Below, one piece after another: positions 20,082 to 56,270 of a stretch of 64,000 nucleotides of DNA. A program made the position numbers and the translations under genes. Position 1 is the stretch's first letter. Every line of letters starts with the position of its first letter. The notes beneath the pieces are model-generated. The model saw only the letters and a program-made list of their open reading frames with translations. It searched no databases and was not told the origin of the DNA. Origin of the DNA: Candidatus Eiseniibacteriota bacterium (GTDB taxonomy: Bacteria > Eisenbacteria > RBG-16-71-46 > CAIMUX01 > VGJL01); the NCBI GenBank assembly GCA_963792585.1, contig CAWBWI010000004.1:224001-288000 (forward strand), given 5' to 3'.

Positions 20082-20085
20082 AGGC

Positions 20086-36825: not shown

Positions 36826-37524
36826 TCAGCGGTACCGTGCTTTGATGAGGCCCCAGGTGGTCGCGACAATCGGGACAGAACCCGTCTCCGTCACCGATAC
36901 GTCGAAGGAGCCAATGTTGTTATACCACCCGCAGCTGTCCAGCGTACCGAGGAAGAGACGGCGGGCGGCGACCGGAACGACCACCCCCTGGATGGCCCCG
37001 CCCGAAGTGAGCCCGTCCCCGATAAAGAACACCTGCTTGAGAAGGGGAAGAAGTGTGAGGTAGTCACGGCTTGCCGGTGAGCTGAAGTCCAGGTCGGAGG
37101 GAGCCGGACTCGAGTCGGGCTCCTGCTCCGTGAGGAACACGCCCACAAGGCAGTTGGCGGGAGCTCTTACGTTCGAGATGCCGTTCTCCGCGCCCGTGTC
37201 GTGCGACGCAATGTAGGCATTTCCATCGGGCGGATCTAGCGGGAACTGCGGGTCGTTTGCGACGCCGCCGGTCGCAGCGAATGTCAGCACATCCCCAGCG
37301 ACAAGAGCGAGACCATTCACGAGCTGCGGAGATTGTTGGGGCGCGTAGTCGCAGCCGCAAGCGCAACTGGCGCTCGATCCATCCGGCATTCCCGCCAGCC
37401 AGGGATCCGACCACCCCGGGACCGAAAGGTCGATTTGAGCGTGAGCCGCCGGAGAAACCCAGAGCGACAGGACAGCCTGGGCCATGGCGAAACACAAGAA
37501 CGCTGGGATCTTTGCGGTCTGCAT
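36826..37524 (-). CDS. Secreted beta-sandwich protein with C-terminal TTWG motif
   Basis: Signal peptide (AHA/Q). Ends VPIVATTWGLIKARYR*. Confidence 0.8.
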   Translation of the reverse strand: MQTAKIPAFLCFAMAQAVLSLWVSPAAHAQIDLSVPGWSDPWLAGMPDGSSASCACGCDYAPQQSPQLVNGLALVAGDVLTFAATGGVANDPQFPLDPPDGNAYIASHDTGAENGISNVRAPANCLVGVFLTEQEPDSSPAPSDLDFSSPASRDYLTLLPLLKQVFFIGDGLTSGGAIQGVVVPVAARRLFLGTLDSCGWYNNIGSFDVSVTETGSVPIVATTWGLIKARYR

Positions 37525-37625
37525 GCTATGCCTCTCCTTTCCAGGGAATCATCCACCGAACCAGAGCACGGAGGCGAGTACTGCGGCGGGTCCGACGAGG
37601 TGCAGTCGCGCTGCGGCGAACCAGA

Positions 37626-38402
37626 TCACCGGTAACTCGCCTTGATCCTCCCCCAGGTGGTCGGCTCCACAGGCGTCGGCTCGCAGGGATTGGGATCGCA
37701 GGCGGTATCGTCACCCGCGTAGGAACCTCCAGCAGTCGCGCAATCGACCTCCGTCCCGAGAAGGCACGCGCCCGAGGCGAAGCAGCAGGCGCCCATCGGA
37801 GGCCCTGCCGTCTCGACGGTGAAGTCCAGCTGGGTGGTGTCGTAGTAATAAGAGATCGGATCGACCGCGCACTCGATCACATCTCCCGCCTGCACGGTCA
37901 GACGGGTGGTGTAGCCCGCAGGCTGCCAGAGGGTACTGAGCGTGGCCGAGAAGAGTTCTGTGCCGTTGGCGTAGACGCGGACGATGTCGGAGCCGAGATC
38001 CCACATCACGAAATGCGCGGTCAGAAGAACCGTCATGTCTTGTGGTGCTGTCCAGCGGACGACGGTTTGCTGGGTCTGGCCAGGGTGGAAATACGTTGTA
38101 TGCGGTGGGAGATCATAGGTCGATACGCAGTGGTAGGGTTCATCGTGGAAGTTGTACCACACACCGGGGTTCATTTCGCCGTCCCACCACCACCAGAGGT
38201 CACAGTCGTTCAGGGGTGAGTTGTCAGTGAAGAGTGCCAATTGCTGTTCCGGGGTATCCCGCCAACCGAACGACCACACTCCGTTTGGATTCTGGGTCGC
38301 CGAGAAGTCATCCCCTAGGTTCCAGACCTCACCATGGCTGATGACCGGGCATAAGACCAACAGCAGGCAGCCGGCAAGCGCGATTCGCATCTTCATGATC
38401 AT
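37626..38402 (-). CDS. Secreted protein with Cys-rich GACC module and TTWG motif
   Basis: Signal peptide. DDFSATQNPNGVWSFG domain. Ends GACC...CDPNPCEPTPVEPTTWGRIKASYR*. Confidence 0.82.
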   Translation of the reverse strand: MIMKMRIALAGCLLLVLCPVISHGEVWNLGDDFSATQNPNGVWSFGWRDTPEQQLALFTDNSPLNDCDLWWWWDGEMNPGVWYNFHDEPYHCVSTYDLPPHTTYFHPGQTQQTVVRWTAPQDMTVLLTAHFVMWDLGSDIVRVYANGTELFSATLSTLWQPAGYTTRLTVQAGDVIECAVDPISYYYDTTQLDFTVETAGPPMGACCFASGACLLGTEVDCATAGGSYAGDDTACDPNPCEPTPVEPTTWGRIKASYR

Positions 38403-38485
38403 GCTCTCCCCAGAAATACGATGGCATTCCTCGGCGAATGGGAGTGGGGGTGGCCACAAGTTGAATGAGGCGACGTATGGAAAGT

Positions 38486-38676
38486 AGATGCCCCTCGGAC
38501 CTCTCGGGCAAGGGGCTCATCGTGGGCACTATGTGGAACTGCGACCTGCATGCTTGACTCCAGAACCTCGACCCCACGTGAACTGGCCTGCATTAGTCGT
38601 CGCGATAGGGCGGCGAATGCGTCTGGAGAAGTCGCAACAAGGATACCGCCGTTCCCGCAGGAACTCCAGCGGCATT
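38486..38676. repeat. Intergenic repeat B, copy 1 (~191 bp)
   Basis: Colinear and highly similar to 54880-55070. Confidence 0.85.
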
Positions 38677-38679
38677 GCG

Positions 38680-38990
38680 CGCTTCGAGACGCACCATGTA
38701 CTTCGAGAGGGCGCGACCTCGATCCGAGTTTGAGCAGCTCCCATGGATGCGCGGCGCGCCCCAGAGCGTCTTGGCCTCAACATCTGCCGGATGAGATCAC
38801 GAACTTCCTCGGGACTCCGGTCTACAACGCCTTCGATCGGCTCTTCCACCGCCAGAGAGCCGGAATCCTTCGCGGTGCCATCGGATAACGGCTCGGCTAA
38901 CGATGGCCAGCGACGCCGCCAGCCGGTCCAGAACCTGGAGAGCAGGTCCAGAGGCCCATCGTGGCTCGCAGCGTGTTTCTGGCTGTCATT
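38680..38990 (-). mobile_element. Highly decayed IS481/IS3-like transposase remnant
   Basis: Across frames reads LLSRFWTGWR...RWHREGFR...EEVRDLIRQM..LWGAPRIHG.LLKL..IEVA..KYMVR. Confidence 0.7.
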
Positions 38991-39092
38991 GGAGCCAAGG
39001 AGTTGTGGGGAGGCCGATCTCCCGGCGAGGCGCGTGGCTTGCGCAGTCAGAGCGCGGTGTGGTAGTGCGGGCTCGGCGCGGCCGCGGCGTGG

Positions 39093-39157
39093 GCGTTCAC
39101 CACGGAGACGCGATTTCGTGAAGCGCCCTTCCTGGGCATCGCTCATGCTGAGAGCGT
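39093..39157. repeat. Intergenic repeat A, copy 1
   Basis: GCGTTCACCACG...TTTCGTGAAGCG...GGGCATCGCTCATGCTGAGAGCGT. Confidence 0.8.
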
Positions 39158-39232
39158 ACTCATAGGCCACCCCACGTTCGCGAGCCTTGTACTTCTGCGG
39201 CGGCGTCTCCCCGAGGACGTCTGGATCGGGCA

Positions 39233-39979
39233 TCACCGGAACAGCGACTTCACCTCACCCCAGGTCGTGTTCTTTACCGGCGTAGACTCGCACGGATTGG
39301 GATCGCAGGGGGCTTCGTCACCCATATAGCTCCCTCCCGCCTGCTCACAGTCTGCCTCTTGACCCACCAGGCAACCACCCGACGGGAAGCAGCAGGCACC
39401 GACCGTGAATTCGAACATCTCCCACTCCTCGATGATCATCTGCTCGTAGCACCCGCCATAGCCGCCCCAGTTGCTCAGGCCGTAGAGGCGGTAGTAGCGA
39501 TACCCCGTCGTCTTCTGAAAGAAGAACGACTGCCACTCATGCCGATTCGCATACTGCATGAGGCCCTCATGAAGTGGCGTATAGGTGACACCATCGTTTG
39601 AACCTTCAAAACGAAAGTCCTTGAGGCGGAGGTTAGAGTCCCACGTCTCGCTGTAGGCTAGAACCTTAAGTTGCTTCACGGTGCGTGACGCACCGAAATC
39701 GATCTGAACCCAGTGCGGGAAGATCTGGCCAGTCCGCTCGTCCCCAGAGTGCCATGACGCGTATTCCAGACCGAGTTGGTTGTTGGAGACATTCGAAGGA
39801 TCGTACACGCCATACAAGTCGTAGAGCACCGAATCGGCTGTGTGCGGCAGAGATGAATCCGTGATATCTGCCTGGGCCTGCGCCGGTGGGACCGAGGCCA
39901 GCACGAGGGTCATGGCCGTCGCCAAGACGGTCCCAACAAGAGAGAAGCGGGAAATAGAACCAGCGGTTGGGAAGATCAT
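39233..39979 (-). CDS. Secreted discoidin/F5-8C-like protein with GACC module and TTWG motif
   Basis: SWHS...PHWVQIDFG, FRFEGSNDG, YRYYRL. Ends CDPNPCESTPVKNTTWGEVKSLFR*. Confidence 0.85.
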   Translation of the reverse strand: MIFPTAGSISRFSLVGTVLATAMTLVLASVPPAQAQADITDSSLPHTADSVLYDLYGVYDPSNVSNNQLGLEYASWHSGDERTGQIFPHWVQIDFGASRTVKQLKVLAYSETWDSNLRLKDFRFEGSNDGVTYTPLHEGLMQYANRHEWQSFFFQKTTGYRYYRLYGLSNWGGYGGCYEQMIIEEWEMFEFTVGACCFPSGGCLVGQEADCEQAGGSYMGDEAPCDPNPCESTPVKNTTWGEVKSLFR

Positions 39980-40312
39980 TGCACCCTCCGAGGTTATCGA
40001 ATCCCTGGCCTCGTTTCCACGGAGCACGACAACTGCGCGTTCTAGGAAGTTCTGATCCGCTCACCAGGACAAGAGTGTTCTTCACCGACGCAGGGCCGCA
40101 GCTTCGCGCGCTCTATGATACGCTTGGGGGACACGAGGAACCAGCAGTTCGTCGTCCAGCGGATCCGCCCTGCGCGACCCTTCAACCTGGAGACGAGTTG
40201 CCAAAGGACAGAACCTCTTGTTACGCGCGCCCTTCGGGTCATCGAGCGGGTGCGGGCACTCGGAGTCTCGGTTTCCGGTGATTCCCTCGCTCGGCCCATC
40301 GCGATCGCGTGA

Positions 40313-40378
40313 GCGTCCACCACGACAACGCAGTTTCGTGAACCGTCCTCAGCGGGCATCGCTCAGGACGAGAGCGTC
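40313..40378. repeat. Intergenic repeat A, copy 2
   Basis: GCGTCCACCACGAC..CGCAGTTTCGTGAACCGTCCTCAGCGGGCATCGCTCAGGACGAGAGCGTC. Confidence 0.8.
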
Positions 40379-40442
40379 AGAAGGAAGCGTTGTATCGTGG
40401 CCTTCAGGCCTTGGTCGGGCGGCCGCGAGGCAACGTTTTCCC

Positions 40443-42320
40443 TCACTTCAGCATGAGCATCTTCCGCTGCGTCTTGGAGCCGGCCGTCTGCAGTGTATAG
40501 AAGTACACGCCGGCGCCGACGGCCCTTCCAGCGTCGTCACGGCCGTCCCACAGCGCCGAGTGCTCACCTGCCGACTGGTTCCCGGAGACCAGAGAGCGGA
40601 CAAGCCGGCCGACTGGGTCGTAGATCGTGAGAGTTACCGCGTGGTCCCTTCCTAGCCGGAAGCCGATGGAGGTCGCGCGGCTGAACGGATTGGGTCGGTT
40701 CTCGTAGAGGACTGCTGTTCTCGTCGCCGCTGGCGAGGAAACAGAGGAAGATTGCAGACAGCGCAGAACTGACTGATACGCGTCGATGAAGCCCCAGCCA
40801 TAGTCGTTGTCTTCTCCGGCCGCACCCTCATCCCGCGCGGTGTCCAGGATGATCTGCTTGATCGTTTCGACGTCGATGTCGGGATTGGCCGAACGCATGA
40901 GACCGACGACGCCGGCGACGTGAGGGCCTGACGCCGAGGTTCCGCCACCATAGGCGTAGCCGCCGCCCGGCGAGGATGAGTACACCCGAACGCCGGGAGC
41001 ACAGATCTCCGGCTTGATCCGGTTCTCGGGAGGCACGCCGGTGCAGCCGCTCGGACCGCGGCTGGAGAAACCGGCGATCGGGTAGGGCCAGCCATAGTCG
41101 GTGGCGTTGACGGCCCCGACCGATAGGCAGTTGAGGGGAGTCGTGGCGCGGTCGGCAGGAGAGCCGATGGTTTGAGCGCCCGGGCCCTCGTTGCCGGCGG
41201 ACCAGGTCGTGACCACGCTTGCTGCTTCGCAGTTGTCGATGACCGCCCACCAGCGAATATCGCAGTCGGTGTAGTCCCAACCGCTTTCATTGATGCGCCA
41301 CGAGTTCTGGACGACGTCGGGCACGTCGTCGACCGTGTTCGGGTTGCCGTCTGGGTCCGCAAACCACTGGTAGCAGTTGATGATGTCGTTGTCGAACTCC
41401 GGTCCGGCACTCTGGTTGCATGGGTTGGCCGCGATCCACTGTGCGCCCCAGGCGACACCGATCGTATCCTGGGTGGTGCCGGCTACGCCGGTCTCTATTC
41501 CCATGACTGCGGTGCCGTGCCCCGAGCCGTCGTTTGGGTACTGAGTATTACTGCCAAGAACGTCATGCCAGCACTCCTGCCACGGATGCCCGCTGTTGCC
41601 GCGCCAGCGGCTGCTCAGGGCCGGATGGTTGCCGTCGACGCCGGTGTCGCAGTTGGCGACGATCGCTCCGGATCCGTTGATCCCAAGCTGGTACCACACC
41701 TCGGGGGCGCGGATGGCGCGTAGCCCCTCCGTGACCCCGATGCCTCTGGGGTCTTCTCCCTGCTCAGGAGCGGGCGTGTTGTCTACAGGTTCCATGGGCG
41801 CGGCCTTGAAGTTCGGCTCCAGGACGTCCACATCCATTCTGGTGGAAAGTTGCTCCAAGGCACTCCGTGTCCCCCGGACCACGATCAGATTGGCGATCCA
41901 GTAGGGTGTGTATCCCGCGATCTGTCCCGTGGCCTTGAGGGTGGCGATCTCGGCCAGGATGGGGCCCTGGGTCTCCCTCGCAGTCCGCTGCAGTTCCTCG
42001 ACTACACGGCGATGTCGTTCGACGCGGCTCGCATTGCCGGCCCTCAGGGCCTCATTCAGGACGTCGATTCTGGCTTGCTGCTCCAGGATCAGGATCGCCG
42101 AAGCCTGCTGATGTGGGGCCAATCGCGAAAGCTCTCCCCGCAAGGCGGGATGGATCGTGCCGGCTCCGGCCGGGATCGCGGGAAGGACCAGACCCGCGAG
42201 GAAGACCAGTACGAGAACCAATTGAGGGGTGCATCGGCCGCGTGCCAAGAGCCGGTTCCGGCTGCGAAGCGAGCGAGGAGATTGAGCTTGCACTTGGGCG
42301 GGCTGGAGCTGGTCAACCAC
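40443..42320 (-). CDS. Secreted S8 subtilase (bacillopeptidase F-like) with FlgD-Ig CTD
   Basis: Propeptide. Triad motifs CDTGVD, HGTAVMG, GTSASGPHVAG, plus SAGNEG. C-terminal WDGRDDAGRAVGAGVYFY. Confidence 0.93.
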   Translation of the reverse strand: MVDQLQPAQVQAQSPRSLRSRNRLLARGRCTPQLVLVLVFLAGLVLPAIPAGAGTIHPALRGELSRLAPHQQASAILILEQQARIDVLNEALRAGNASRVERHRRVVEELQRTARETQGPILAEIATLKATGQIAGYTPYWIANLIVVRGTRSALEQLSTRMDVDVLEPNFKAAPMEPVDNTPAPEQGEDPRGIGVTEGLRAIRAPEVWYQLGINGSGAIVANCDTGVDGNHPALSSRWRGNSGHPWQECWHDVLGSNTQYPNDGSGHGTAVMGIETGVAGTTQDTIGVAWGAQWIAANPCNQSAGPEFDNDIINCYQWFADPDGNPNTVDDVPDVVQNSWRINESGWDYTDCDIRWWAVIDNCEAASVVTTWSAGNEGPGAQTIGSPADRATTPLNCLSVGAVNATDYGWPYPIAGFSSRGPSGCTGVPPENRIKPEICAPGVRVYSSSPGGGYAYGGGTSASGPHVAGVVGLMRSANPDIDVETIKQIILDTARDEGAAGEDNDYGWGFIDAYQSVLRCLQSSSVSSPAATRTAVLYENRPNPFSRATSIGFRLGRDHAVTLTIYDPVGRLVRSLVSGNQSAGEHSALWDGRDDAGRAVGAGVYFYTLQTAGSKTQRKMLMLK

Positions 42321-42403
42321 CGGATCCTCCTCACAAGAAGGAGTGGGTTGTCGCTGTCCGCGCAGGGCCGGACGGGGACCGAATCAACGGAAGACCATTG
42401 ATA

Positions 42404-42412
42404 ATTATAGCA
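42404..42412 (-). promoter_or_regulatory. Extended -10 promoter element for the S8 peptidase
   Basis: TGCTATAAT on the minus strand, ~85 bp upstream of the GTG start. Confidence 0.55.
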
Positions 42413-42656
42413 TAGTCTTGAGGTTGGACGAATGTGGGATGGGGGCCGACTCACCTTCAGGTTGCCGCGACGCCAGTTCCCTCAGATCGAACAGACCCCG
42501 CGTTCTATCGGGCTATAGGCGCTCAGATCACTTGCAGATTCGACCTCATCCGCGCCCAGCGATTCCGCATTCGTGACCGGCTGGGGTGGTCCGTTGCTCC
42601 GTCCCCCGCAATCCCCGCGCTGCGGCCCCCACGCCCGGCATGCCCCGCTCTCCTCA

Positions 42657-42732
42657 GCGTCCACCGCGAGCACGCAGTTACGTGAACCGTCCGCTCTGGG
42701 GTCCGGAGCGGACACCCGCGTCCACCACTCGG
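42657..42732. repeat. Intergenic repeat A, copy 3 (divergent)
   Basis: GCGTCCACCGCGAGCACGCAGTTACGTGAACCGTCC...GCGTCCACCACTCGG. Confidence 0.7.
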
Positions 42733-42849
42733 CGGTTAGAGAACGGAGAGGCGAGAGTTTCGGCTCATCTGCGGACCTTGCGTCCACCACTTCCCCGGAC
42801 GGCGTTCGACCAGAGAGTCACGCCGCCCGACCCACCTCTGCAAGACCTT

Positions 42850-43119: not shown

Positions 43120-46100
43120 TCATTTGGTCAGAACCAGTCGTCCCGTCGTGGTCCCCCGTGCGGTCACAACCCGGGCAAAGTAGACCCCTGTCGGTACCTC
43201 TCGCCCGTTGTCATCTCGCCCGTTCCATTGGGTCGAGAAGGAACCGGCCGGCCGCTCACCGTCCGCTAGCTGCCGCACGAGTGCTCCGGCCGCATTGAAT
43301 ATCTCCAGGGAGATAGCCGTCGCTGCAGGCAGGCGGTACAGGATCGAGACTGCTCCGGAGCTTGGACTCGGAGCCACAGAGAGAGTCAGCGACTCCACGT
43401 TCTGAGAGGTCCCATCAACAGTGGAATTCGGGCATAGGTTGGATTGGCAATCGGTTCCGTCTCCCAGGTAGATGCCTGGAGGTTCGCACCATTCCTGGGT
43501 TGTGAAGGTGCATGCACCGTCCTCGTGGCAGCAAGCACCGCCGGCCAAACGAATCAAGCCCAGGATGCCGCCACCTCCCGCGATGGCGAAGAAGTCGGAA
43601 TTGGGTTCCGGTATGTTACAATGGCCGCTGTCGTTGTACCCCCAAGCTACGATGGATCCATCGGCCCTGAGCCCCAGACTGTGCATCGCGCCTGCCGCGA
43701 CATCGACGAAGTCGGTGTATCCCGGAACATTGCACTGGCCTTGGTGGTTGCCCCCCCAGGCGACGATCTTCCCGTCGCTCTTGAGCCCCAGGTTGTGTTC
43801 GCCGCCTGCCGCAACGGCGACGAAACCGGTGTTGGGTGCTGGAACATCACACTGGCCGCTGGTGTTGAGCCCCCACGCCACGACGGAGCCGTTACCCTTG
43901 AGGCCCAGGCTGTGCCAGTAGCCTGCCGCAACGGCGACGAAACCGGTGTTGGGTGCAGGAACATTGCACTGGCCGCGGTCGTTTCGCTCCCACGCGACGA
44001 TCGACCCGTCAGTCTTGATGCCAAGGCTATGCCAGCGCCCAGCTGTGACGGCAATGAAACCCGTGTTTGGTTCCGGTACATTGCACTGGCCGTAGTAGTT
44101 CCACCCCCAGGCCACGATGGCCCCGTCGGCCTTGAGCCCCAGGCTGTTGTCGTCGCCTGCCGCGATGGCTACGAAGTCGGTGTTGGGGTCCGGTACGCTG
44201 CATTGGCCGAACTGGTCGTCTCCCCAGGCCGCGATGGAGCCGTCGGCCTTGAGTCCAAGGTTGTGCACGTATCCACCCGCGACGGCGACGAAGCCCGTGT
44301 TGGGTGCAGGTGCATTGCACTGGCCGTAGCCGTTGTCCCCCCACATCACGATGGAGCCGTAGGCCTTGAGTCCTAGGCTGTGGTTGGGTCCGGCCGCGAC
44401 AGCGACGAAGCCAGTGTTGGGTGCCGGTAAGGTGCACTGGCCGGAGCCGTTGTCCCCCCACGCCACGATGGAGCCATCGGCCTTGAGACCCAGGCTGTGC
44501 GCCTGCGCTGGCTCAATGCGTCCTCCTGCAGCTACGGCGACGAAGCCGGTGTTGGGTACCGGTACGTCACACTGGCCGTCCTCGTTGCTCCCCCATGCCA
44601 CGATGGAGCCGTCGGCTTTGAGCCCTAGGCTGTGCAAGTAGCCTGCCGCAACGGCGACGAAACCGGTGTTGGGTGCAGGAACATTGCACTGACCGCCCTC
44701 GTTCCACCCCCATGCCACGATGGAGCCGTCGGCCTTGAGGCCAAGGTTGTGATAGACGCCCGCCGCGATCGCCACGAAATCGGCATTGGGCAAGGGAACC
44801 TGATCGGTGGGCCCCCACGCCAGGATCGTCCCGTCGGCCTTGAGGCCTAGGCTGTGATTGCCGCCCGCCGCAACGGCGACGAAGTCGGCATTGGGTACAG
44901 GAACATTGCATTCATCATTGTAGTTGACTCCCCATGCCACAATCGAGCTGTCGGCCTTAAGGCCAAGGCTGTGGCCGGCGCCTGCCGCGACAGCGACGAA
45001 GTCTGCGTTGGGTGCCGGAACATTACACTGGCCGACAAGGTTGCGCCCCCACGCCAGGATCGAGCCGTCCGCCTTGAGGCCAAGGCTGTGCACCGCACCC
45101 GCGGCGATGGCGACGAGATCCTCAAGCGCGGTGGGTTCTACAACAACCATGTTGCCCCATCCCACGATGGTGCCACCGGGCGGCTGAGGACATGGATTCG
45201 GAAGGCAGGCCGTTCCCACACCCATCCAGACGTTCTGAGGAGCGCACAGGTACTCGGCCACGATCATGCACTGTCCGGTTGCTGGACTACAGCATGCACC
45301 CGGTGAGCAGGTTTCCGGTCCGCAAGTGCTGGGGTACCCTTGTGGATTCCCACCTTCGGAGCGGCAAGTGCTCTCGGTGACGAACTCACAGTGCCCGTCC
45401 GGGAAGCAGCATGCCATCGAGGGTTGGGAACACGGGTTGGGGTCGCAGCTCGCGCCCATGCCCGACGATCCCCCTCCTTCATCACAGGCAGCCAGAGACA
45501 ATTGCTCGCAGTGCCCATCGGGGAAGCAGCAGGCCATCGGAACGGATGGACAGGGATTCGGGTCGCATGAGCTCCCGGGCCCCTGAAAGGACCCACCGAG
45601 CTGGTTACAGTCAGCGTGCATCAAGACCTCGCAGTGCAAGTCCGCGAAGCAGCACGCACCGGGAACCGGAGGGGTTCTGTAGAATCTTTGACTCACGTCC
45701 AGGGCTACTCCGAACACCTCCCCACTAGTAGTCCAGTCCGGGTACGAGAAGTATGCGGAACGAAACGTAGCCTGGTGGCCAGTTACCTGTCCCGCTGCTA
45801 CGCGCCCCCATTGCGGTGGGAATACATGGTCGCACGCTTGAACTGAGAACCAGTATGTTCCCTCTCCGATGTTGGCCGCCACGGCCGCATGGTACTCGTA
45901 GACTGGTCCATAGAGGCCCTGACCTACATCAATCACCTCCGTCGGGGTGGATTCGAGATACTCATCCACGATGGAACCCGGAACGCCTCCAGCGTCAGCG
46001 TAGAACCGCAAGTTGAATGCAGTGACGTTGGGTTCGCCAGCTCCGTTGTAGTACTCCCCCCACCAGACAGCTTCATAGATGACCGTCGACGACGAGGAGT

Positions 46101-46356
46101 AGAAGTCGTTTGCGATTTCGGTCTCGAGCCCATACATGGCAATGATCTCTGATGTCAGCGGTTCTCCGTTGAGATCCGGAGGCTCGTCCCACCATCCGTC
46201 CCTGTCCCCGAGCAACACCGCCGGGGGGCCGCTCGCGCGATGAGGGGTCCCAAGCGTCGGCGAGCCAGCAATTCCAATTCCTTGGCAGAGCAGCAGGAAC
46301 ATCAAACAGAGACTCAAACAAAGGTATCCGATCCGCAACGACCCTTGGTCTTTCAT
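43120..46356 (-). CDS. Secreted modular protein: shared N-terminal domain, Cys-rich modules, 14 RCC1/BLIP-II repeats, FlgD-Ig CTD
   Basis: Signal peptide. 39-aa repeats VAAGxxHSLGLKADGSIVAWGxNxxGQC. CC...CxPNPC modules. Confidence 0.9.
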   Translation of the reverse strand: MKDQGSLRIGYLCLSLCLMFLLLCQGIGIAGSPTLGTPHRASGPPAVLLGDRDGWWDEPPDLNGEPLTSEIIAMYGLETEIANDFYSSSSTVIYEAVWWGEYYNGAGEPNVTAFNLRFYADAGGVPGSIVDEYLESTPTEVIDVGQGLYGPVYEYHAAVAANIGEGTYWFSVQACDHVFPPQWGRVAAGQVTGHQATFRSAYFSYPDWTTSGEVFGVALDVSQRFYRTPPVPGACCFADLHCEVLMHADCNQLGGSFQGPGSSCDPNPCPSVPMACCFPDGHCEQLSLAACDEGGGSSGMGASCDPNPCSQPSMACCFPDGHCEFVTESTCRSEGGNPQGYPSTCGPETCSPGACCSPATGQCMIVAEYLCAPQNVWMGVGTACLPNPCPQPPGGTIVGWGNMVVVEPTALEDLVAIAAGAVHSLGLKADGSILAWGRNLVGQCNVPAPNADFVAVAAGAGHSLGLKADSSIVAWGVNYNDECNVPVPNADFVAVAAGGNHSLGLKADGTILAWGPTDQVPLPNADFVAIAAGVYHNLGLKADGSIVAWGWNEGGQCNVPAPNTGFVAVAAGYLHSLGLKADGSIVAWGSNEDGQCDVPVPNTGFVAVAAGGRIEPAQAHSLGLKADGSIVAWGDNGSGQCTLPAPNTGFVAVAAGPNHSLGLKAYGSIVMWGDNGYGQCNAPAPNTGFVAVAGGYVHNLGLKADGSIAAWGDDQFGQCSVPDPNTDFVAIAAGDDNSLGLKADGAIVAWGWNYYGQCNVPEPNTGFIAVTAGRWHSLGIKTDGSIVAWERNDRGQCNVPAPNTGFVAVAAGYWHSLGLKGNGSVVAWGLNTSGQCDVPAPNTGFVAVAAGGEHNLGLKSDGKIVAWGGNHQGQCNVPGYTDFVDVAAGAMHSLGLRADGSIVAWGYNDSGHCNIPEPNSDFFAIAGGGGILGLIRLAGGACCHEDGACTFTTQEWCEPPGIYLGDGTDCQSNLCPNSTVDGTSQNVESLTLSVAPSPSSGAVSILYRLPAATAISLEIFNAAGALVRQLADGERPAGSFSTQWNGRDDNGREVPTGVYFARVVTARGTTTGRLVLTK

Positions 46357-46450: not shown

Positions 46451-49400
46451 TCAACGCAGCACGATCAGACGGCTCGATTGCACCTCTCCCCCCATGCGAA
46501 GCCGGCAAACATAAACGCCTGAGGGGAGGATTCGTCCGGCGTCGTCGTTGCGCTTCCAGATCATCTGATGAACTCCGGCCGAATACGGCATTCGCGAAGC
46601 GAGTCGCCGGACGCAGCGGCCACTAACGTCATAGATGGCCAGATCGATCACTGCTTCCTTCGCGAGGCCAAACGCGATCGCCGTCTCGTTGGCGAAGGGG
46701 TTGGGTCTCCCGGGCATCAGTCCCATCGTCACCTGGGCCATGGGATCCTCAGTCCCCGTGGCGGGACAACCGAGACCGAGCGCTCCGATCAAGAGATCGC
46801 ATGGGCTATTCCAGGGCAAACACGGGGAACCGGACAAGAGGGTGTAATCCCCTCCGGGAGGGGGCGCGTCACATGGTTCTGGAGCACAGAACCTGGGATC
46901 CGAGAACACCTGCGGGCCGAGGTAGGTGATGCTGCCGCTCGCTCCCAATCGATCAAGCGCGCAGCAGGTCATCGTTAGGTTCGAACCAATCACTTCGTGG
47001 CCCAGTGGGTTGCTTGGGTTCGTGTTCCCCCAAAGGATGGTCCGGCTCACCTGCGTGTCGGTTCCGTCCAGCCCCCCCGTCCCATTCTCGTTGTCCGAGC
47101 AGTTGCTGCTGATGGTGCAGCTGATAATGCTCGAACTCGCGACCTCAATCCCCCTGCCAATGTTGCCCGTGATGACACAGTCGTTGACTTGGAGATTGCT
47201 TCCCCGGATCCCACCCGGGCTGCCGCGGTTACCGCTGACCGCGCAACCTGCGATCGTCAGGCTGTCCCCCACGACTCCACCGACGTCACCGTGATTGTCG
47301 GCGATCACGCAATCCCGAATCGTCGTATTGGAGCCGGCGTGCACTCCTCCCGCACCCATACCCCCGCTGTTGCCTCGAATGTCGCAACCCGCGATGACTC
47401 CCGCCGCGCAGTAGATCCCACCACCGTAAAGCGCATGGTTGGAGTCGATGGTGCATCCGGAGATATCTCCGTTATAGCAGGCGATGCCACCCCCGATTGC
47501 ACTTGCATTTGAGTACACGTAGTTGCCGGTGACAATGCAGTTCCGCATCGTCAGAATCGACGATTCGTCGCTATAGATCCCCGCCCCGCCAAATCCTGCT
47601 GGATATCTGCTGCTTCCCACGGTGCAGTCCGAGATCGTGCAGTCGGTCAGGAGAGGAGAAGCCGAAGCGCTGCAGTGGACGCCTGCACCCCGACCCCAGT
47701 GGTCGATTTGGAAGTTGATGATCTTGCAGCCCTTGATCCACGGCGAGGATGACAAGATGTGGATTCCGCCACCCCCGAACTCCGAGTATCCGCCGGATAG
47801 CGTTACCGCTTCGAGCACGGCCCGATTGTCTTCCCCGGAATCGAAGGTGAATCCGCCTGCTCCGCCGCATCCGATGACGCACTGGTCGGGGTCCCTGCTC
47901 TGCGAGCGAATCGTCACCAGCCGCCCGTGATAGTCAATCTGGCGATTGCCCGGCCCCGTGAAGGGCGTGCCGATCAGTTCGATCACGTCCCCGTTCGCGA
48001 GGTCCGTGTAGTCGATCGCCGCCTGAATCGTCGGGAAATACGGGGGCGATTCTCCACTCCCGTCGGAGCGGACATAGTAGACCGAGCCGCCGGGTGGCTG
48101 GGCGCACGGGTTCGGAGCGCAGGGCGTACCCACCCCCATCCAGACCTTGGGCAGTATGCACTGCTCCTCAGTCAGCATCGTGCAGCGTCCCGTTGTCGGG
48201 TTGCAGCACGCGCCATGGGGGCCAGTCAGCCCCAGGCCGTGCCAAGCCTCTGCCGCAATGGCCACGAAGCCGTTGTTGGGTTCCGGAACATTGCACTGGC
48301 CGTTGGCGTTGTCCCCCCACGCTACGATGGAGCCATCCGCCTTGAGGCCCAAACTGTGGTTACTCCCTGCCGCGACAGCGACGAAGCCGGTGTTTGGCGC
48401 CGGTACGTCGCGCTGGCCATCGGAGTTGCTCCCCCATGCAACGATGGTGCCGTTGGCCAGAAGTCCCAGACCGTGACTGGTCCCTGCCGCGACAGCGACG
48501 AAGCCGATGTTGGGTGCAGGAACATCGCACTGGCCTCCGGAGTTGCTCCCCCATGCCACGATGGAGCCATTCGCCTTGAGGCCCAGGCTGTGGTGGTGCC
48601 CTGCAGCAACTGCGACGAAATCGGCGTTCGGCGCGGGGACGTCGCACTGGCCGGAGGAGCTGCTCCCCCATGCCACAATGGAGCCGTCTGTCTTGAGCCC
48701 TAGGCTGTGGCTTGCGCCTCCCGCGACAGCGACATAGCCGATGTTGGGTGCAGGGACATCGCACTGACCGTAGCTGTTATACCCCCATGCAACGATCGAG
48801 CCGTCCGTCTTGAGCCCGAGGCTGTGAGTGGTCCCTGCCGCGACGGCGACAAAACCGGTGTTGGGCGCCGGCACATCGCACTGGCCGTATTGGTTATTGC
48901 CCCCCCACGCCACGATTGAGCCGTTAGCTTTCAAACCAAGACTGTGGTTATCTCCTCCGGCGACCGCGACAAACCCGAGGTTGGGTTCCGGCACGTCGCT
49001 GCCGAACTCCCACAACACGATCGACCCGCTGGGCGGCTGAGGGCATGGATTCGGAAAGCAGACTGTTCCCTCACCCATCCAGACGCCGGGGGCCGTGCAC
49101 TGCTCCTCGGCCATCACCATGCAGTTTCCCGTTACTGGACTGCAGCATGCGCCAAACTGTGGGCAGAGTGATTCGTCACAGGTGGTCGGATACCCGAGTG
49201 GAATCCCGCCTTCGAATATGCAGGTCTGTTCCGTGGTGAACTCACAGTGTCCGTCCAAAAGCAGCATGCCATCGAGGGTTGCGGACAGGTGTTCGGGTCG
49301 CAGTTGATACTGACGCCCGACGATCCCCCTCCTTCATCACAGGCAGCCTGAGACAATGGTTCGCAGTGCCCATCGGGGAAGCAGCATGCCATTGGAACGA

Positions 49401-50214
49401 ACGGGCAAGGGTTCGGGTCACAGGTGGTCTCGGGCCCCTGCCACACCCCGCCGAGTTGATCGCAGTTCAGCTCCACCAGAGATTCGCAATGCAGATCGAA
49501 ATAGCAACACGCTCCGACAACCGGCGGAGTTGTATAGAACCTCTGACTCGCGTCGAGGGGGATACCCCAGATTTGCTCAGTAGGAGTCCAGTCTGGGTAC
49601 CCAGCCCATTCAGAACGCAACATGGATTGGTAGCCGGTCACCTGGCCCGCTGAGAGGCGACCCCATTGCGGTGGGTACACATGGTCGCATGCTTGAACTG
49701 AGAACCAGTATGACCCTACTCCGATATCGACCGTCACGGATGCATGGTACTCGTAGATTGGTCCGTCGGGGCCCTGACCTTGAGGAATCGTCTCTGTAGG
49801 GGTAGTTCCGGGATACTCGGCAATGAGGGAACCCGGAACGCCACCCGCGTCATCGTAGAACCGCAGGTTGAATGCAGAGACGTTTGGCCCGGTTCCATCG
49901 TCGTTGAAGTACTCTCCCCACCACACGGCCTCATAGATGATCGTCGGCGCTGAGGAGTAGAAATCGTTTGCAGTTTCAGTCTCGAACCCAAGGATAGAAA
50001 TGATCTCTGAACTCATCACACTTCCGTACAAATCCGGTGGCTCGTCCCACCATCCCTCCCTATCCCCGGGCAACGCCACCGGCGGCCCGCTTGCGCGATG
50101 CGTGGGGCCAAGCGTCGGCGTACCCGCAAGCCCAATTGCCGGACAGAGCATCACGAAGATCAAGCAAAGACCCACGCAAAGGCATCCGATCCGCAACGAC
50201 CCTTGGTATTTCAT
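46451..50214 (-). CDS. Secreted modular protein: shared N-terminal domain, Cys modules, 7 RCC1 repeats, right-handed beta-helix, FlgD-Ig CTD, frameshift at ~49258
   Basis: ORFs 49132-50274 and 46451-49267 join if one T is added to a T-run (CCF-LDGHC). TIQAAID and GGGI motifs. Confidence 0.85.
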
Positions 50215-50680
50215 CTGGCGGCCCCTTTCCCTTTGTCCCAGTCGGCTCCGAGCAGCAGGACGCCAAGCGTTCACGTGGATTGGTGACCTCGGATGAACGG
50301 ACGATCACCCGCTCCACCGCTCGTACTCATCGGAAATCAATGGGATCAAGCTCGCGGCTCTCACAGTAAGTGCCCTTCCGGTCGCATCCGCGTAGTTGAA
50401 GGCGGGATAAGTGTACTCCCGTCGAGGGCGAAGGGCGCGGATGTAGTGGAGGAAGCCGTTTCTCTTCCTGGCCGCCGCCCGACAAGGCTACCCCAGGGAT
50501 CTGCCGCCCCAGGCGATGATTACGGGGCTTTGGGCCGGTTGGTCGGTGCGTCGGGGTGGAATACTTCCGATCGTGGCCATGCCCGATCCGAAACCCTCTC
50601 CTCACGACTCCGTCGATCAGTCATCGTGGCGACGACTCGCAATCTCGGGGATGACGCTCCCTATCGGGCCAGGACAACCC
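50215..50680. repeat. Duplicated upstream block, copy 1 (pairs with 60219-60682)
   Basis: Colinear high similarity from the paralog start codon through to the stop codon of the upstream FlgD gene. Confidence 0.9.
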
Positions 50681-51647
50681 TTCCCGTTGTTGATCCTTCC
50701 CCCGTCACGATCCGCGCGAAGTACACCCCCGTGGGCAGGTCGCGACCGTTGTCATCGTGGCCGTCCCAGGGCGTGAAGAACGCACCCGCGGGGCGCTGGC
50801 CCTCGTCGACTCTGCGCACCAGGCCACCCGCCGCATCGAACACCTCGATAGTGACTGCCGTGGGTCTAGGCAGGGTGTACCGGATCATGACCTGGCCGGT
50901 GCTCGGATTCGGGGTTGCGGTCAGCCGTAGCTCGCTGACCTGTGTCGCATCCTCCACCCCGGACACGCACGGGTTTGGCTCGCAGAAACTACCGGGCCCC
51001 ATAAAGACCCCGTCATACCCAACGCACTGAGCCTCTGACATCCGTTCGCAGTAGGTGTGGTGGCAGCAGGCTCCTACCAGGCATGGATTCGGGTCGCAGT
51101 CGGTGCCCCAACCCTGCCAGACGCCAGGGGCCGGGCAGTTGGCTTCCGTCGCCATCATGCAGGTGCCGTCAGGCTGGCAACACGCCGCGCCTAGGTCCTC
51201 CCGGTCGAGGTCTTCCCATCTAAAGAGGCCAGTTCCCGACGTCCAAATCCATACCTGCCCATCGTCGTAGGCGAACGGGATCATGTTTCCGTCTTGGCAG
51301 TCCATGTCCACGACGCTCGCCCCTTCCCGATGTGCGTCGACAAAGAACTCAAACCCCGAATACATCCCCGCAAGGTACACTTGATCGTCCGCATAGAGGA
51401 TCAGAAGCCCTGAGTACCTTGCCTGCATCCGCTTGATGGGGACATTCCTGTTCACGTCGGTCAACTGTGTGGGGGGACCACCACCCCTCCAGACCTGGTT
51501 GTCCTCGTAAGCAGCGAATACGACCTGATTGATCCCCGCCACGTCGACGATCTTCAGTAACTCGGCTTGTGACATTGCGGGAAGCAAGAGGAGCAAGGAA
51601 ACGACAGACACCAGCATCGCGGTTCTCACAGTAGGCCTCCCCTTCAT
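50661..51647 (-). CDS. Secreted protein with small repeat domain, two Cys-rich modules and FlgD-Ig CTD
   Basis: Signal peptide (SQA/E, start possibly GTG 51629). Y.DxQV repeats. AACC/GACC...CxPNPC. WDGHDDNGRDLPTGVYFAR. Confidence 0.85.
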   Translation of the reverse strand: MKGRPTVRTAMLVSVVSLLLLLPAMSQAELLKIVDVAGINQVVFAAYEDNQVWRGGGPPTQLTDVNRNVPIKRMQARYSGLLILYADDQVYLAGMYSGFEFFVDAHREGASVVDMDCQDGNMIPFAYDDGQVWIWTSGTGLFRWEDLDREDLGAACCQPDGTCMMATEANCPAPGVWQGWGTDCDPNPCLVGACCHHTYCERMSEAQCVGYDGVFMGPGSFCEPNPCVSGVEDATQVSELRLTATPNPSTGQVMIRYTLPRPTAVTIEVFDAAGGLVRRVDEGQRPAGAFFTPWDGHDDNGRDLPTGVYFARIVTGEGSTTGRVVLAR

Positions 51648-52204
51648 CGAATCCGCGTGATCGAAGGCGCGTCGAGTGTACCACGGGCGCGGGCCGGGCG
51701 GATAGCATCTGATTCAGCGGGGCTACCTGCACCTGTCTGCACGAGGCAAGGATGGCACGGGGGGGATGACAGCCGTTGACGTAGGGGTGGACGCCTATTC
51801 TTCTCGAAACCCTATCCGAGGAGGACGAACAAGGGACCGATTGTGGCTATCACGGCACCTCGGGGCGCATCGGGAGCGCCACGAGTGTCCCGGCAAGGGC
51901 GCTAAGAGCGGCCTTCCTGGGGCTGTCAGATCGGGTCACGGCGGGGACTGGCTCTCTCTCTGTTTCGTCAACGTGGATGATCTGAACGTGCCCATCGGGG
52001 AGCATGTGGACCCGCGCTACTACGCACCATCTGCTGTCGTTCATGCCGCCCTCCGCTTGTTCCTCTGTGCGCTGTTCCTCGAACTTGGCGATCCGCGTCT
52101 CGAGATCGGCCAACTCGCGGACCCTCAGGAGCGCATCAACCCATCGCCTCGCCGCCGGTGCCTTGCCCTGCTTGTGGACGTCGCAGCCCCTTGGTCCCGA
52201 TAGT

Positions 52205-52366
52205 TCACTTCTTCTTCGTGGAGACCGCGAAGCTCGTGATCTTCTGCCGTACCTTGGAGGACTTGCACTCCGGACACTTGATCTTGGCTGTGTCGTGCTT
52301 GACCATCCCCATCGTTATCGTGAAGTTCTTCCCGCAAGCCTCGCACTTGTAGGCATACTCGGACAT
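52205..52366 (-). CDS. FmdB-family zinc-ribbon protein
   Basis: MSEYAYKCEACGKNF...CPECKSSKVRQKITSF. AAGGAGG SD. Confidence 0.85.
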   Translation of the reverse strand: MSEYAYKCEACGKNFTITMGMVKHDTAKIKCPECKSSKVRQKITSFAVSTKKK

Positions 52367-52478
52367 GACAAGACCTCCTTGGCAGACGAGAATCGGCGCG
52401 GTGGTCAATGTGGCGACTCGATCATAGCACGGGAGGGGTGTGGCAGGAGCATCGTCGGGCCGGGATCCGCGCGTCGAT

Positions 52479-52601
52479 CTACTCCAGAATCTCCAGGACC
52501 ACCCGCCTGTCCTCCTTCGCCGCGACGCCGCTCAGAATCGTCCGCAGCGCCTTCAGGGTGTGCCCGTGCTTCCCAATGACCTTGCCAAGATCGCCCTGGC
52601 C
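52479..52601 (-). pseudogene. khpA: KhpA/YlqC KH-domain protein, C-terminal fragment
   Basis: [40 protein letters not shown]. In-frame TGA immediately upstream and no N-terminal half. Confidence 0.75.
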
Positions 52602-53267
52602 TCAGCCGTCATCCCTGTCGCAACCGCAACCAGACCGAGGAATGCGACAGTGATCTGCCCCAGACACCCGCTGACGCGTGTGCGCTCGAAGCGGGGACCG
52701 TCGTCTGGATCTGATTGAGCATCTTCGTGGCCCCGCGCCGTTGACTTCACGCGAGCCAAGTACTCTGATCCGCCTCCGAGCGGCACATCCTCAAGTTTCC
52801 CTGAGGAACGGGCTGCCAGAATGTAGCTGTACTCCGGGTCAGCGAAGAATCTGGGACGAATAGTCCCTGTCGCTTCTATGAGCTCCATCCCGCTTGATGC
52901 GATTGTGGTTACGCCGGTTCGCTGAAGAGGCTGCTCGATCGGGATAGAGGCTCATCGAGCGTCGGTAGACAGCTCCCCTGGCCGTGTCCTGCGTTTCGCC
53001 CTTCCTGACCGGGCGCGGCGGCCCGGCGCTGCTTCAGATGTCGGTGGGTGCGGCTTCCCGGCAGGTGGGAACGAAAATGGCGTCATGGGCTGCCTCCGCA
53101 ACACCCACAACGCCTTCCGCTTTGTGGCCGGGCCGCTGTCTGGTGATATGTACCGATGCGGTGCGTTCACCGCGATGAATCAGTTTCTACGCGGGGAGCG
53201 GGAGCGTGTCAAGGGCGACCCGAGAAGCATCTGCTTCCCAGGCCGCCCCGATTCGCATGCCATCAGT

Positions 53268-54575
53268 CTACCGGTAACTCGCCTTGATCCGACCCCAGGT
53301 AGTCGCCTGGATCGGCGTAGGCTCACACTCATTCGGGTCACAGTTGGTCCCGTTCCCCATGTAGTTCCCGCCCTGGTCGCCGCACGCTGACTGTCCAAGG
53401 ACGAGGCACGGTCCATCCCCGAAGCAGCAAGCACCAGTCGGTAGAGCGCCGCAACCCTGCCCGAGGGCACCTATGAGTTCACCGCAAGGGCTATTCTCGG
53501 CAAGACATGGGGAATCCTCGCGAAGACTATAGTCCGACAAATGAGCTTCATAGCAGTCGAATTCTAAGCAGTACATTGGATCATCCCATACCTGCTCGCC
53601 CACGAATCCGATGCTCCATAAGGTGACACCGGTACTATCAACGGCGCAGCACTCCACCCGGCCAATGGCCCCTTCCCAGACATTGAGATCGAACTGACCG
53701 CATTCAGTGAAGTTATCTCGTACTACCGACCGCTGCGCATCCAGGCTCCCCGATCGCACTTCAACCCCACCTGCATTTCCTGCCAGGGTGCTGCGGATGA
53801 TATGGGCATTAGCTTCTGCGCCATCAATTGCAATCCCGCCGATTCCTCCAGCCTGTCTTCCGAAGTTGTAGGTCACCAGTGACTCCTCGAGCCGCAGCTC
53901 CCCCGCATCCGACACCATTACACCCCCCGCCATCCCTCCATTGCAGTCGCGGATCACGCAACGGTCGATCGTGAGTCGCCCGCGCCCTGTTACCTCAGCG
54001 CCGCCGCCACTTTCACGGATCGTGCAGGTCACCAACCGCACACTGGCCATCCCATGGACGCCAACAGCAGGAATGACGTTCTCCTCGATCAAACAATCCG
54101 TCACGACTACAGAGGCATCTCCACCCGCAAGGATGGCTCCATTCAACGGCGGCGGTGGATCTCCATACGCAAAGGAATAGCCCGTCATATGGCAGCCGTT
54201 GATCCTCAGAGTGCAGTTTCCACTCGCACAAACCGCACAACCAGAACCTGTGTCGAGGGTGAATCCATCGACTAGGGCAACGGCATTGTCCGAACCACCA
54301 ACCCAGACACTCCCACCGACCACTCTCGTGCTGATTGCACCCGACTCACCTAGCAATACAACATCCCAATCAGGGAAGGATATTTCCTGATTCCCCTCAC
54401 CTTGATGGACCCCGCTCCTAACCAGAACAGTGTCCCCCTCTTCCGCCGCCGTCAGCCCTGCCTGGATCGTAGGATACTGGTCGGGCACAATGCGAAGTAC
54501 AGCCTGCGCCGACTGCCCGACGAATAGCACCAGGGGGACCACGCCCCACGAACAAAGACGCTTCCGGCCGCTCAT
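53268..54575 (-). CDS. Secreted right-handed beta-helix protein with GACC module and TTWG motif
   Basis: VPDQYPTIQAGL...GDTVLV, DYSLREDSPCL...LIGALGQGC. Ends PTPIQATTWGRIKASYR*. AAGGAGGAG SD. Confidence 0.87.
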   Translation of the reverse strand: MSGRKRLCSWGVVPLVLFVGQSAQAVLRIVPDQYPTIQAGLTAAEEGDTVLVRSGVHQGEGNQEISFPDWDVVLLGESGAISTRVVGGSVWVGGSDNAVALVDGFTLDTGSGCAVCASGNCTLRINGCHMTGYSFAYGDPPPPLNGAILAGGDASVVVTDCLIEENVIPAVGVHGMASVRLVTCTIRESGGGAEVTGRGRLTIDRCVIRDCNGGMAGGVMVSDAGELRLEESLVTYNFGRQAGGIGGIAIDGAEANAHIIRSTLAGNAGGVEVRSGSLDAQRSVVRDNFTECGQFDLNVWEGAIGRVECCAVDSTGVTLWSIGFVGEQVWDDPMYCLEFDCYEAHLSDYSLREDSPCLAENSPCGELIGALGQGCGALPTGACCFGDGPCLVLGQSACGDQGGNYMGNGTNCDPNECEPTPIQATTWGRIKASYR

Positions 54576-54879
54576 CTGCCCGCTCCTCCTTCAATGACGA
54601 TGGGGACGGTCTTTCTCTTCGTCCCCACCCGAAGCTGAGCGAAGTAGACCCCCCGCAACTCTGATGCCTCCATCGGTCTTTCCGTCCCACGCCACGTCCT
54701 TCACGCCATTAACTATCGCTCCACGCAACAAGGAGGCGAATCTTCGCGGTTCGCACCATCACTGTTATCTCGAGCGCGCGCTTTGGTGTCGGCATATCCG
54801 CTGGAAAGGATGCTGAGGAAGTGTGGTCCAGACCTGGTCGGGGATGGGTGCTAGGGCCTAGAGTTGGGGGCCAGGACGC

Positions 54880-55070
54880 AGATGCCCCTCGGCCCACTCG
54901 GCGGAGGGGCTTCCAGTAGGCGCAATGAGAATCTGCGACCTGCATGCTCGACTCCAGAACCTCGATCCCACGTGAACTGGCCCGCGCAAGTCGTCGCGAT
55001 GAGGCGGCGTATGCGTCTGGAGAAGACGCAACGAGGATACCGCGATCACGGAGGGAGCGCCAGCGGCATT
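54880..55070. repeat. Intergenic repeat B, copy 2
   Basis: Similar to 38486-38676. Directly abuts repeat A copy 4. Confidence 0.85.
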
Positions 55071-55076
55071 TGATGA

Positions 55077-55153
55077 GCGTTCGCCACGACCGCACAGTTT
55101 CGTCAACCGTCCTCAGCGGGCATCGCTCATGCTGAGAGCGTCCACCACTCGGC
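55077..55153. repeat. Intergenic repeat A, copy 4
   Basis: GCGTTCGCCACGAC...CAGTTTCGTCAACCGTCCTCAGCGGGCATCGCTCATGCTGAGAGCGTCCACCACTCGG. Confidence 0.8.
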
Positions 55154-55430
55154 CGCGATCCTCGACGATGAGGGCGCGTTGCGCCTGAAACGAGGAGATC
55201 AGGGCACGGATAATGGTGAAGAGCAAGGCGGGAAGGCTATCGTAGATCTGCGCGTAACTGCAAGCCAAGCGGCGAGGACGGAGTTTTTCAGAAGCCATAG
55301 CTCTTTCATGCCGCAAGTGTGTGCCACGCGCTGCCCTTAGCGCACGGACGGCTCGGGTCTGAAACCACCGACCGACTGGGCTCGCGCTGCGCACCCCGCG
55401 CGTTCGCGCGCGTGTTAGACACCACCTATT

Positions 55431-56270
55431 CTAATTGCGGTATCGCGCCTTTACTGCGCCCCACGTTGTCTCAATGACCGGGACGGGTCCATCCACCTCC
55501 ACCCGGAACTCATCGAGGCTCCACTCTGTCCAGTCGTCGGCCCATAAGTACCAGTAGATCGGGGCATTTCCGAAGAGGACGGCGGTCGGTCTCAATGAAG
55601 TCGTGACCGGACCGTAGATGACCTGACCGTCGACGAGGATCGCGGCCGATGTCCCGACGTACACCACCTTGACCTCATGAGGAGCGGTCGGGTCGACCGG
55701 TACAATCCCCACCAGGTCGAACGAGCCGTCGAGAGCCGTGTTGATCCGGAGCCCCCCTTGCGCAGCGTCGGTCCCCATATGCAGTACGACATCTTCCGGG
55801 TGTCCATGGGGCAGACGGTCCCCGACGGGCTCCGTGTCCTGCGATCGAAAGACTGCGAGGCCACTGCCATATGGCGCGAGGTGGTCGTAGCGCAATCGCA
55901 GCGTGAAAGAGAAATCTCCTGAGGTTGGGAACACCAGCACGGACCCGGGGAGCCTGGAATACAGGATTGGGTATGCTCGTTCATTACTCGAGGAGAAGTG
56001 CATCCATCCATCAGATAGGGTCGCACTGCCGTACGGCGCGTGGATGGCGATATCGTGGCACTCGACTCCCTCATCGACCCAAGACCCGGGCCCCCAATAG
56101 TCGTCCGTCTCCTGACACCAGCGCGGACCGCTGGTCAGGATCTCGGTGCGCCAGACTGAGGGGTCCAGGTTTGGTCCGTTGAACTGCTCCTCGAAGAAGA
56201 TGTCGGCGGCCGCCATCGATGCGATCGACAGCAGGCTGGTGAACACGAATAGGCCGATGATCGGCTTCAA
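55431..56270 (-). CDS. Secreted ConA/LamG-like beta-sandwich protein with TTWG motif
   Basis: TTG start after GGAGG. Signal peptide. FFEEQFNGPNLD..W, ILVDGQ, LDEFRV. Ends PVPVIETTWGAVKARYRN*. Confidence 0.78.
   Translation of the reverse strand: MKPIIGLFVFTSLLSIASMAAADIFFEEQFNGPNLDPSVWRTEILTSGPRWCQETDDYWGPGSWVDEGVECHDIAIHAPYGSATLSDGWMHFSSSNERAYPILYSRLPGSVLVFPTSGDFSFTLRLRYDHLAPYGSGLAVFRSQDTEPVGDRLPHGHPEDVVLHMGTDAAQGGLRINTALDGSFDLVGIVPVDPTAPHEVKVVYVGTSAAILVDGQVIYGPVTTSLRPTAVLFGNAPIYWYLWADDWTEWSLDEFRVEVDGPVPVIETTWGAVKARYRN

Follow-up and report, generated by a model that had tools for sequence, protein, structure and literature searches.

What role does a terminal segment of about 15 residues play when it is shared by exported proteins whose remaining domains are unrelated? 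This question is raised by a 64,000-nucleotide stretch of DNA (the window) from a Candidatus Eiseniibacteriota bacterium (assembly GCA_963792585.1, contig CAWBWI010000004.1, positions 224,001 to 288,000), in which five minus-strand genes encode signal-peptide proteins ending in a TTWG-containing motif, referred to here as the tag. The tag is real, undescribed and probably a new class of signal linked to type IX secretion (by the system termed T9SS). We further propose, with moderate confidence, that it works as a miniature signal marking cargo for a mostly motor-less SprA/PorV/PorU (type IX-like) system, replacing the roughly 90-residue C-terminal domain (CTD).

Sequence, carriers and exchange of the tag

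The five open reading frames (ORFs) given in the preliminary description are present with the C-termini quoted there. The first (36826–37524; ORF, Pfam/NCBIfam and motif scan) encodes a 232-residue exported protein of no known family, with the tag in its last 15 codons (36826–36873). Its paralog at C1:1877010 is likewise tagged, and an Atlas search with the protein yielded leads below 0.9 only. The second (37626–38396; ORF and motif scan) specifies an exported protein of about 255 residues, which combines an unknown domain with a Cys-rich CDPNPC repeat and the tag (37626–37673). The third is an F5/8 type C (discoidin) protein (39233–39979; domain search and motif scan; tag at 39233–39280), and the fourth is a right-handed beta-helix protein (53268–54575; domain search; tag at 53268–53315), whose best paralog within the genome ends in a CTD and lacks the tag. 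The Cys-rich repeat directly precedes the tag in the second, third and fourth proteins. The fifth (55431–56270; ORF and motif scan) is a 279-residue exported protein of no known family, in which the tag carries one extra residue (55431–55481). The passengers are indeed unrelated, with two recognizable folds and no family for the remaining three proteins.

The genome of the window is 5.4 Mb in seven contigs, 84% complete and rich in frameshifts. A six-frame scan with the pattern [TSV]WG.[IVLM][KR] placed the Trp eight residues before the stop codon in 108 of 168 matches and nine residues before it in seven more. Three scrambled motifs occupied the same position in 3/97, 1/55 and 1/79 matches, and the tag is thus restricted to the C-terminus far beyond these controls. 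After removal of shorter segments and one evident false match, the tagged set comprised 107 ORFs of at least 120 residues, with the consensus [TV]-P-[TVI]-x-x-[TAS]-[TS]-W-G-x-[IVL]-[KR]-x-x-[YF]-R-stop. They fall into 40 BLAST families, the largest of which (n = 52) is probably chained through the Cys-rich repeat. The expected link with signal peptides was observed: by a crude hydrophobicity rule rather than SignalP, 92 of the 107 (86%) have a signal-peptide-like N-terminus, compared with 1008 of 2886 other genes (35%). A C-terminal transmembrane (TM) stretch occurs in only three of the 107, as opposed to all 11 PEP-CTERM proteins, in agreement with the described absence of a membrane helix at the tag.

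The tag is exchanged with other terminal signals. A home-made profile identified 304 ORFs with FlgD_ig/T9SS type-A-like CTDs in this genome, and 30 of 115 tag-ending segments align with the region just before a paralog's CTD, the junction being the same (C-x-x-T-P-V...TWG in the tagged proteins and C-V-S-A-V-D...CTD in the paralogs). Several of these swaps span whole passengers, as in beta-helix pairs, and many cover only the shared Cys-rich repeat. A cross-species swap was also found, in which a choice-of-anchor V protein bears a CTD in this genome and the tag in family f8. In one tandem pair of paralogs (34% identity over 137 residues, E 2e-18), one member has the tag and the other PEP-CTERM. 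The run at C1:754889–763714 contains a tagged gene, a PEP-CTERM paralog and an EPS/exosortase operon, placing three sorting systems in one genome.

The CTD models TIGR04183 and PF18962 matched none of the five window proteins and none of 58 among 59 further tagged proteins; the single FlgD_ig match lies in a passenger that precedes the tag. Beta-helix, CBM4/9, lamin-tail domain (LTD), PPC, CHRD, cupredoxin, DUF7450, NHL (ScyF-like), DNRLRE and choice-of-anchor W passengers were recognized among the 59, the majority of which were assigned to no family. In none of the proteins scanned did a Pfam or NCBIfam model extend over the tail. In an AlphaFold2 model based on a 10-sequence family, the tail is predicted as a separate helix (residues 134–142, pLDDT of about 60) after a coil, and a fold search with this model returned FlgD and generic Ig folds. 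Since the passengers are unrelated, a lipoprotein paralog with 80% identity lacks the tag, and the predicted helix is separate and of low confidence, the tag is not part of a shared fold, and the idea that it is merely the last strand of one is not borne out. The notion of an amphipathic signal of about 15 residues holds in part: a helix is predicted, but the hydrophobic moment is lower at 100° (0.50) than at 170° (0.68). The helical tail is a prediction only, and the moment gives neither reading clean support.

Distribution and partner genes

A strict DNA pattern detected the tag in 142 of 151 sampled genomes of the phylum, with 1 to 97 copies each and reversed controls near zero. Each of the remaining nine has a single-copy LTD orthologue with a variant tail, bringing the tag to 151/151. 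All 13 Eisenbacteria/Krumholzibacteria-like genomes reached through named loci are tagged, and the tag was not found in two Bacteroidota genomes. The LTD-TWG gene itself is single-copy and kept across Eisenbacteria and Krumholzibacteria (L053:15421–16041, plus strand; C2:75420–76043 in this genome). Genes for a vWA-like membrane protein, an LTD-CTD protein and two putative barrels often lie upstream of it.

A second, more distant carrier was first seen as one match in genome G164 and seven metagenome contigs among 80 loci fetched. This protein, Fn3-TWG, consists of a signal peptide, one Fn3-like domain and the tail [ST][ASG][VI][RK]RTWGSIKA[ML]F[RQK]. It is unannotated, 130–150 residues long, single-copy and conserved throughout the basal Bacteroidota (for example L231:1023–1418, minus strand), and its gene often lies beside Maf or pyrR. 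Full-length matches in short ORFs place it in at least 107 of 301 Bacteroidota genomes (best 13 candidates per genome), and an independent pattern found it in 86 of the 301, nearly always in single copy, with a control of zero. Exact look-up, in which 17 of 20 queries matched, named Rhodothermus marinus (UniRef100_D0MCX2), Rhodocaloribacter, Cyclonatronum, Hymenobacter jeongseonensis, Ca. Thermochlorobacter, Chloroherpetonaceae, Kapabacteria and Ignavibacteriales as carriers; all records are labelled "hypothetical" or Fn3. An orthologue was not found in the genome of the window. Many large proteins encoded by these carriers also contain the Fn3 domain, and Fn3 repeats dominate a representative-library search; a comparison with PDB sequences gave nothing significant. 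Fn3-TWG is a candidate for an overlooked T9SS accessory or cargo.

In the genome of the window, SprA is encoded by a frameshifted gene, PorU and four PorV-family genes score above cut-off, and there are 17 C25 matches as well as further PorV-family paralogs. All 67 genomes tested have SprA, and 63 of them are Eisenbacteria/Krumholzibacteria-like tag carriers. Among the 301 Bacteroidota genomes, which were grouped by proxy rather than by assigned class labels, 237 have SprA; all of the at least 107 Fn3-TWG genomes belong to these, and none to the 64 without SprA. The dedicated machinery envisaged in the preliminary description did not emerge; the sole partner class tracking the tag is the shared T9SS outer-membrane module (SprA).

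PorV-family genes number 7–15 per genome in 30 of 30 genomes, and in a tree of 121 sequences no clade goes with the tag more closely than kinship would explain. Because most PorV-family paralogs adjoin a CTD gene of their own, canonical PorV is the main orphan barrel. Eight expanded barrels of this genome (C1:601618, C1:479770, C3:772014, C1:871320, C1:662237, C1:978874, C6:768227 and C7:2550) are in most cases directly adjacent to the gene of a large protein that bears a CTD variant of its own, an arrangement similar to type B cargo–shuttle pairs. PorV2 was rejected as a required reader: 19 of the 107 Fn3-TWG genomes lack a match at E<=1e-40, and it is present in 104 untagged genomes (best six candidates per genome). 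The neighbourhoods of LTD-TWG and Fn3-TWG, including Maf and pyrR, reveal no obvious reader, and no conserved scaffold gene or barrel gene adjoins the tagged genes in the loci read. Exosortase was found in 49 of the 67 genomes and is missing from 18; it was rejected as the reader, being absent from near-complete, tag-rich genomes (G001, G004, G015, G048, G083 and G129, 97–100% complete).

Proposed route and alternatives

The cargo-signal reading builds on the position of the tag, its modularity, its swaps and its co-occurrence with SprA. From these we infer the following route. Once the protein has been exported by Sec, its W-G-x-[IV]-[KR]-x-x-[YF]-R segment would fold as a short helix and dock either on a PorV-family shuttle barrel, the best candidate left being canonical PorV, or on another part of the translocon; the passenger would then cross the outer membrane through SprA. 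Passages of PMC4560394 describe the PorU cleavage site as X/(GSA)(VLI), and a [GSA][VIL] pair precedes the tag in 31 of 44 Fn3-TWG proteins. In these, PorU may cut at the preceding [ST]/[AGS][VI] site, leaving the passenger anchored or released. In Eisenbacteria, in which the site usually holds Pro, the tag probably either stays in place or is cut by a different C25 protease. More tentatively, and at somewhat less than an even chance in our estimate, the tag may represent a third class of type IX signal, one the size of a peptide and ancestral to the FCB group. Ignavibacteria, Kapabacteria, Rhodothermia, those Chlorobia that keep SprA and some Cytophagales would have retained a single Fn3-TWG protein, and in Eisenbacteria and Krumholzibacteria, whose SprA/PorV/PorU system would work without the PorLM motor, the tagged cargoes would have grown to dozens or hundreds. 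Some 15 residues would in that case suffice to take a folded protein through SprA.

Several observations weigh against the cargo-signal reading. The tag was not found in three Zixibacteria-like genomes (G165, G166 and G168). Fn3-TWG is missing from 130 of the 237 SprA-positive Bacteroidota genomes (best 13 candidates per genome), and SprA is necessary-looking but not specific for the tag. Because the genomes are kin, its co-occurrence is not independent and indicates compatibility rather than proof. Partner profiling, the PorV-family tree and gene neighbourhoods yielded no single reader. GldM was detected in none of 20 Eisenbacteria and none of three Krumholzibacteria-like genomes, with ten Bacteroidia controls positive; it is likewise undetected in nearly all basal Bacteroidota tested, and one of the ten GldM-positive Bacteroidia is a tag carrier. 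GldN was not found in this genome by a search that had no positive control and did not extend to GldK or GldL. The type IX system of this genome and of 22 other Eisenbacteria/Krumholzibacteria-like genomes, with SprA, PorU, PorV and hundreds of CTD cargoes but no detectable GldM, is apparently motor-less.

The cargo and its processing raise further difficulties. Three tandem lipoproteins, all tagged (L016:7917–9915, plus strand), and a tagged TlpA-like redoxin are unusual cargo, and a fourth lipoprotein paralog (C2:1853), 80% identical, stops just before the tag position. The pair [GSA][VIL] precedes the tag in only 22 of 107 ORFs of this genome, where P[VITA] stands in 88, and in 10 of 123 cases in other genomes and metagenome contigs. 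With these frequencies set against those of Fn3-TWG, PorU-type processing is plausible for that ancient family and doubtful for the expanded tags. According to sections of PMC10994853, PorV and SprA bind the folded CTD over approximately 1850 Å2, and by our analysis a nine-residue helix cannot fill the CTD pocket in the same way. The statement that tag and FlgD-Ig never occur together stands for the 115 tag-ending segments, none of which overlaps the 304 CTD-like ORFs under a strict end rule, and no internal tag lies ahead of a CTD in any of the 304. It fails outside the window, where a 10-protein family (C3:1272738) joins a signal peptide, a CTD-like domain and the tag; because of this family, CTD and tag are not strict alternatives. 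The C3:1272738 protein (L114:1242–1694, minus strand) is a stand-alone exported CTD-like domain with two conserved Cys residues, possibly a CTD mimic or regulator.

Some of these points would suit an alternative that we take seriously while considering it unlikely: a docking peptide that is never cut, is not an export signal, and binds a groove on a surface scaffold, on a CTD-bearing carrier (piggy-back export) or on a T9SS subunit. On this view Fn3-TWG would belong to the T9SS as an accessory component, and its docking helix would later have been taken over by many genes, consistent with a tail that is far better conserved than its own domain in this single-copy family. The Pro at the would-be cleavage position in Eisenbacteria, the tagged lipoproteins and the tolerance of short extensions beyond the tag also fit docking. 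Tagged proteins are small (median 240 residues, 5 of 90 above 500) relative to CTD proteins (median 642 residues), and their genes cluster in arrays, 47 of 90 having another tagged gene within two genes where 7.7 are expected. Against docking stand the exact exchanges of the tag for two known sorting signals and those involving choice-of-anchor domains, the PorU-type site in most Fn3-TWG copies, and the lack of a conserved adjoining scaffold gene in the loci read.

A receptor-free membrane or lipopolysaccharide anchor, in which a short basic amphipathic helix would hold periplasmic or surface proteins, appears improbable. The targeting sequences of MinD and FtsA are helices of this type. In favour of such an anchor are the tag's mean charge of +2.3, its lack of a TM stretch and its predicted helix. 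Near-invariant W, G and [TS] residues at a fixed spacing from the end point instead to a protein pocket. In addition, the hydrophobic face is narrow, with Leu at position +6 in only 54 of the 107 ORFs, the helical moment is not dominant, and the tag is confined to SprA-positive genomes in the Bacteroidota sample. Even less probable is a reading by another envelope system, such as a periplasmic C-terminal protease, a type II secretion variant or an unrecognized protein, with the SprA link due to ancestry only. Kinship confounds all profiles, many SprA-positive genomes are untagged and no reader was found; nonetheless, in a mostly SprA-negative Bacteroidota subsample (n = 75, 61 negative), all eight carriers fall within the 14 SprA-positive genomes. 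A truncated PEP-CTERM signal read by exosortase, as the tandem swap beside the exosortase/EPS operon and the two exosortases and 11 PEP-CTERM genes of this genome might suggest, is very improbable and largely refuted by the exosortase profile; the tag also has neither a PEP motif nor a TM helix.

Island setting and known sorting systems

As described for the other exported genes of the island, six end in FlgD_ig/Por_Secre_tail-like domains, all on the minus strand. They comprise an untagged S8 peptidase with a type-A-like CTD (40443–42221; TIGR04183 28.8 bits, cut-off 23), an RCC1-repeat protein with Cys-rich repeats and a CTD (43120–46356; domain search), and its RCC1/beta-helix paralog, split by a frameshift into two ORFs, with a CTD-like tail judged from the sequence only (46451–50274). 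Domain searches further identified a gene in which the Cys-rich repeat is followed by the CTD, the junction matching the tag position of the tagged genes (50661–51647), an RCC1/Cys-rich gene in two frameshifted ORFs with a CTD at its end (56918–60278), and an SBBP-repeat protein with a terminal CTD that extends past the window edge (62198–63985). Such frameshift splits are common (also 32025–34997, and sprA at C4 ~15500–21700) and are probably assembly errors. Integrase/transposase-like gene fragments on both sides of the island (35259–35633 and 60102–61856) suggest mobility. Elsewhere in the window, two large ORFs of about 1450 and 1210 residues adjoin each other (9698–17744, minus strand).

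No characterized function was recovered for the motif, in line with the preliminary description: it has no Pfam or NCBIfam model, no description of it was found in the portions of the literature searched (supplements lay outside the search), and a term search did not find "TWG" in the Haft 2023 sorting-signal preprint (bioRxiv 10.1101/2023.06.07.544157). If the cargo-signal reading is correct, the products of up to approximately 2% of genes in whole uncultured phyla would be assigned to the surface or the secreted fraction, and the 15 residues would offer a minimal export tag. Tag genomes also point to SprA/PorV/PorU systems without a detectable motor. Because Rhodothermus marinus and Hymenobacter, which have the homologue in single copy, are cultured, a question about uncultured bacteria becomes open to experiment.

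Like PEP-CTERM, LPXTG, GlyGly-CTERM and MYXO-CTERM, the tag is a short C-terminal element on many diverse small exported domains (CHRD, choice-of-anchor, ScyF-like). PEP-CTERM, as passages of PMC1569441 describe, requires a TM helix and tracks exosortase; the tag differs in having no PEP motif, TM helix or basic cytoplasmic cluster and in not tracking exosortase. Type B CTDs form a second T9SS cargo class with its own PorP/SprF shuttle barrel (PMC12618676), and the 7–15 PorV-family barrels of tag genomes recall that setting. In contrast, type B signals (TIGR04131) are domains of 150–235 residues with the shuttle gene next door, whereas the tag has neither a TIGR04131 match nor an adjacent barrel. 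The likeness to the type A CTD (TIGR04183/PF18962; here FlgD_ig-like, PF13860) extends to the C-terminal location on Sec-exported proteins, the same junction and passengers in paralogs, a terminal Arg in this genome, a PorU-type site in 31 of 44 Fn3-TWG proteins (22 of 107 tagged ORFs here), SprA in every carrier genome tested, and hosts that encode SprA, PorV and PorU. Unlike the type A CTD, the tag has about 15 residues, forms no beta-sandwich, matches no CTD model and follows small passengers; in Eisenbacteria it usually has Pro at the cleavage position, some of its carriers are lipoproteins, and its hosts mostly lack a detectable GldM. T9SS cargo recognition has been described as needing a folded CTD of type A or B; were 15 residues to do in its place, a further class of cargo would join these two.

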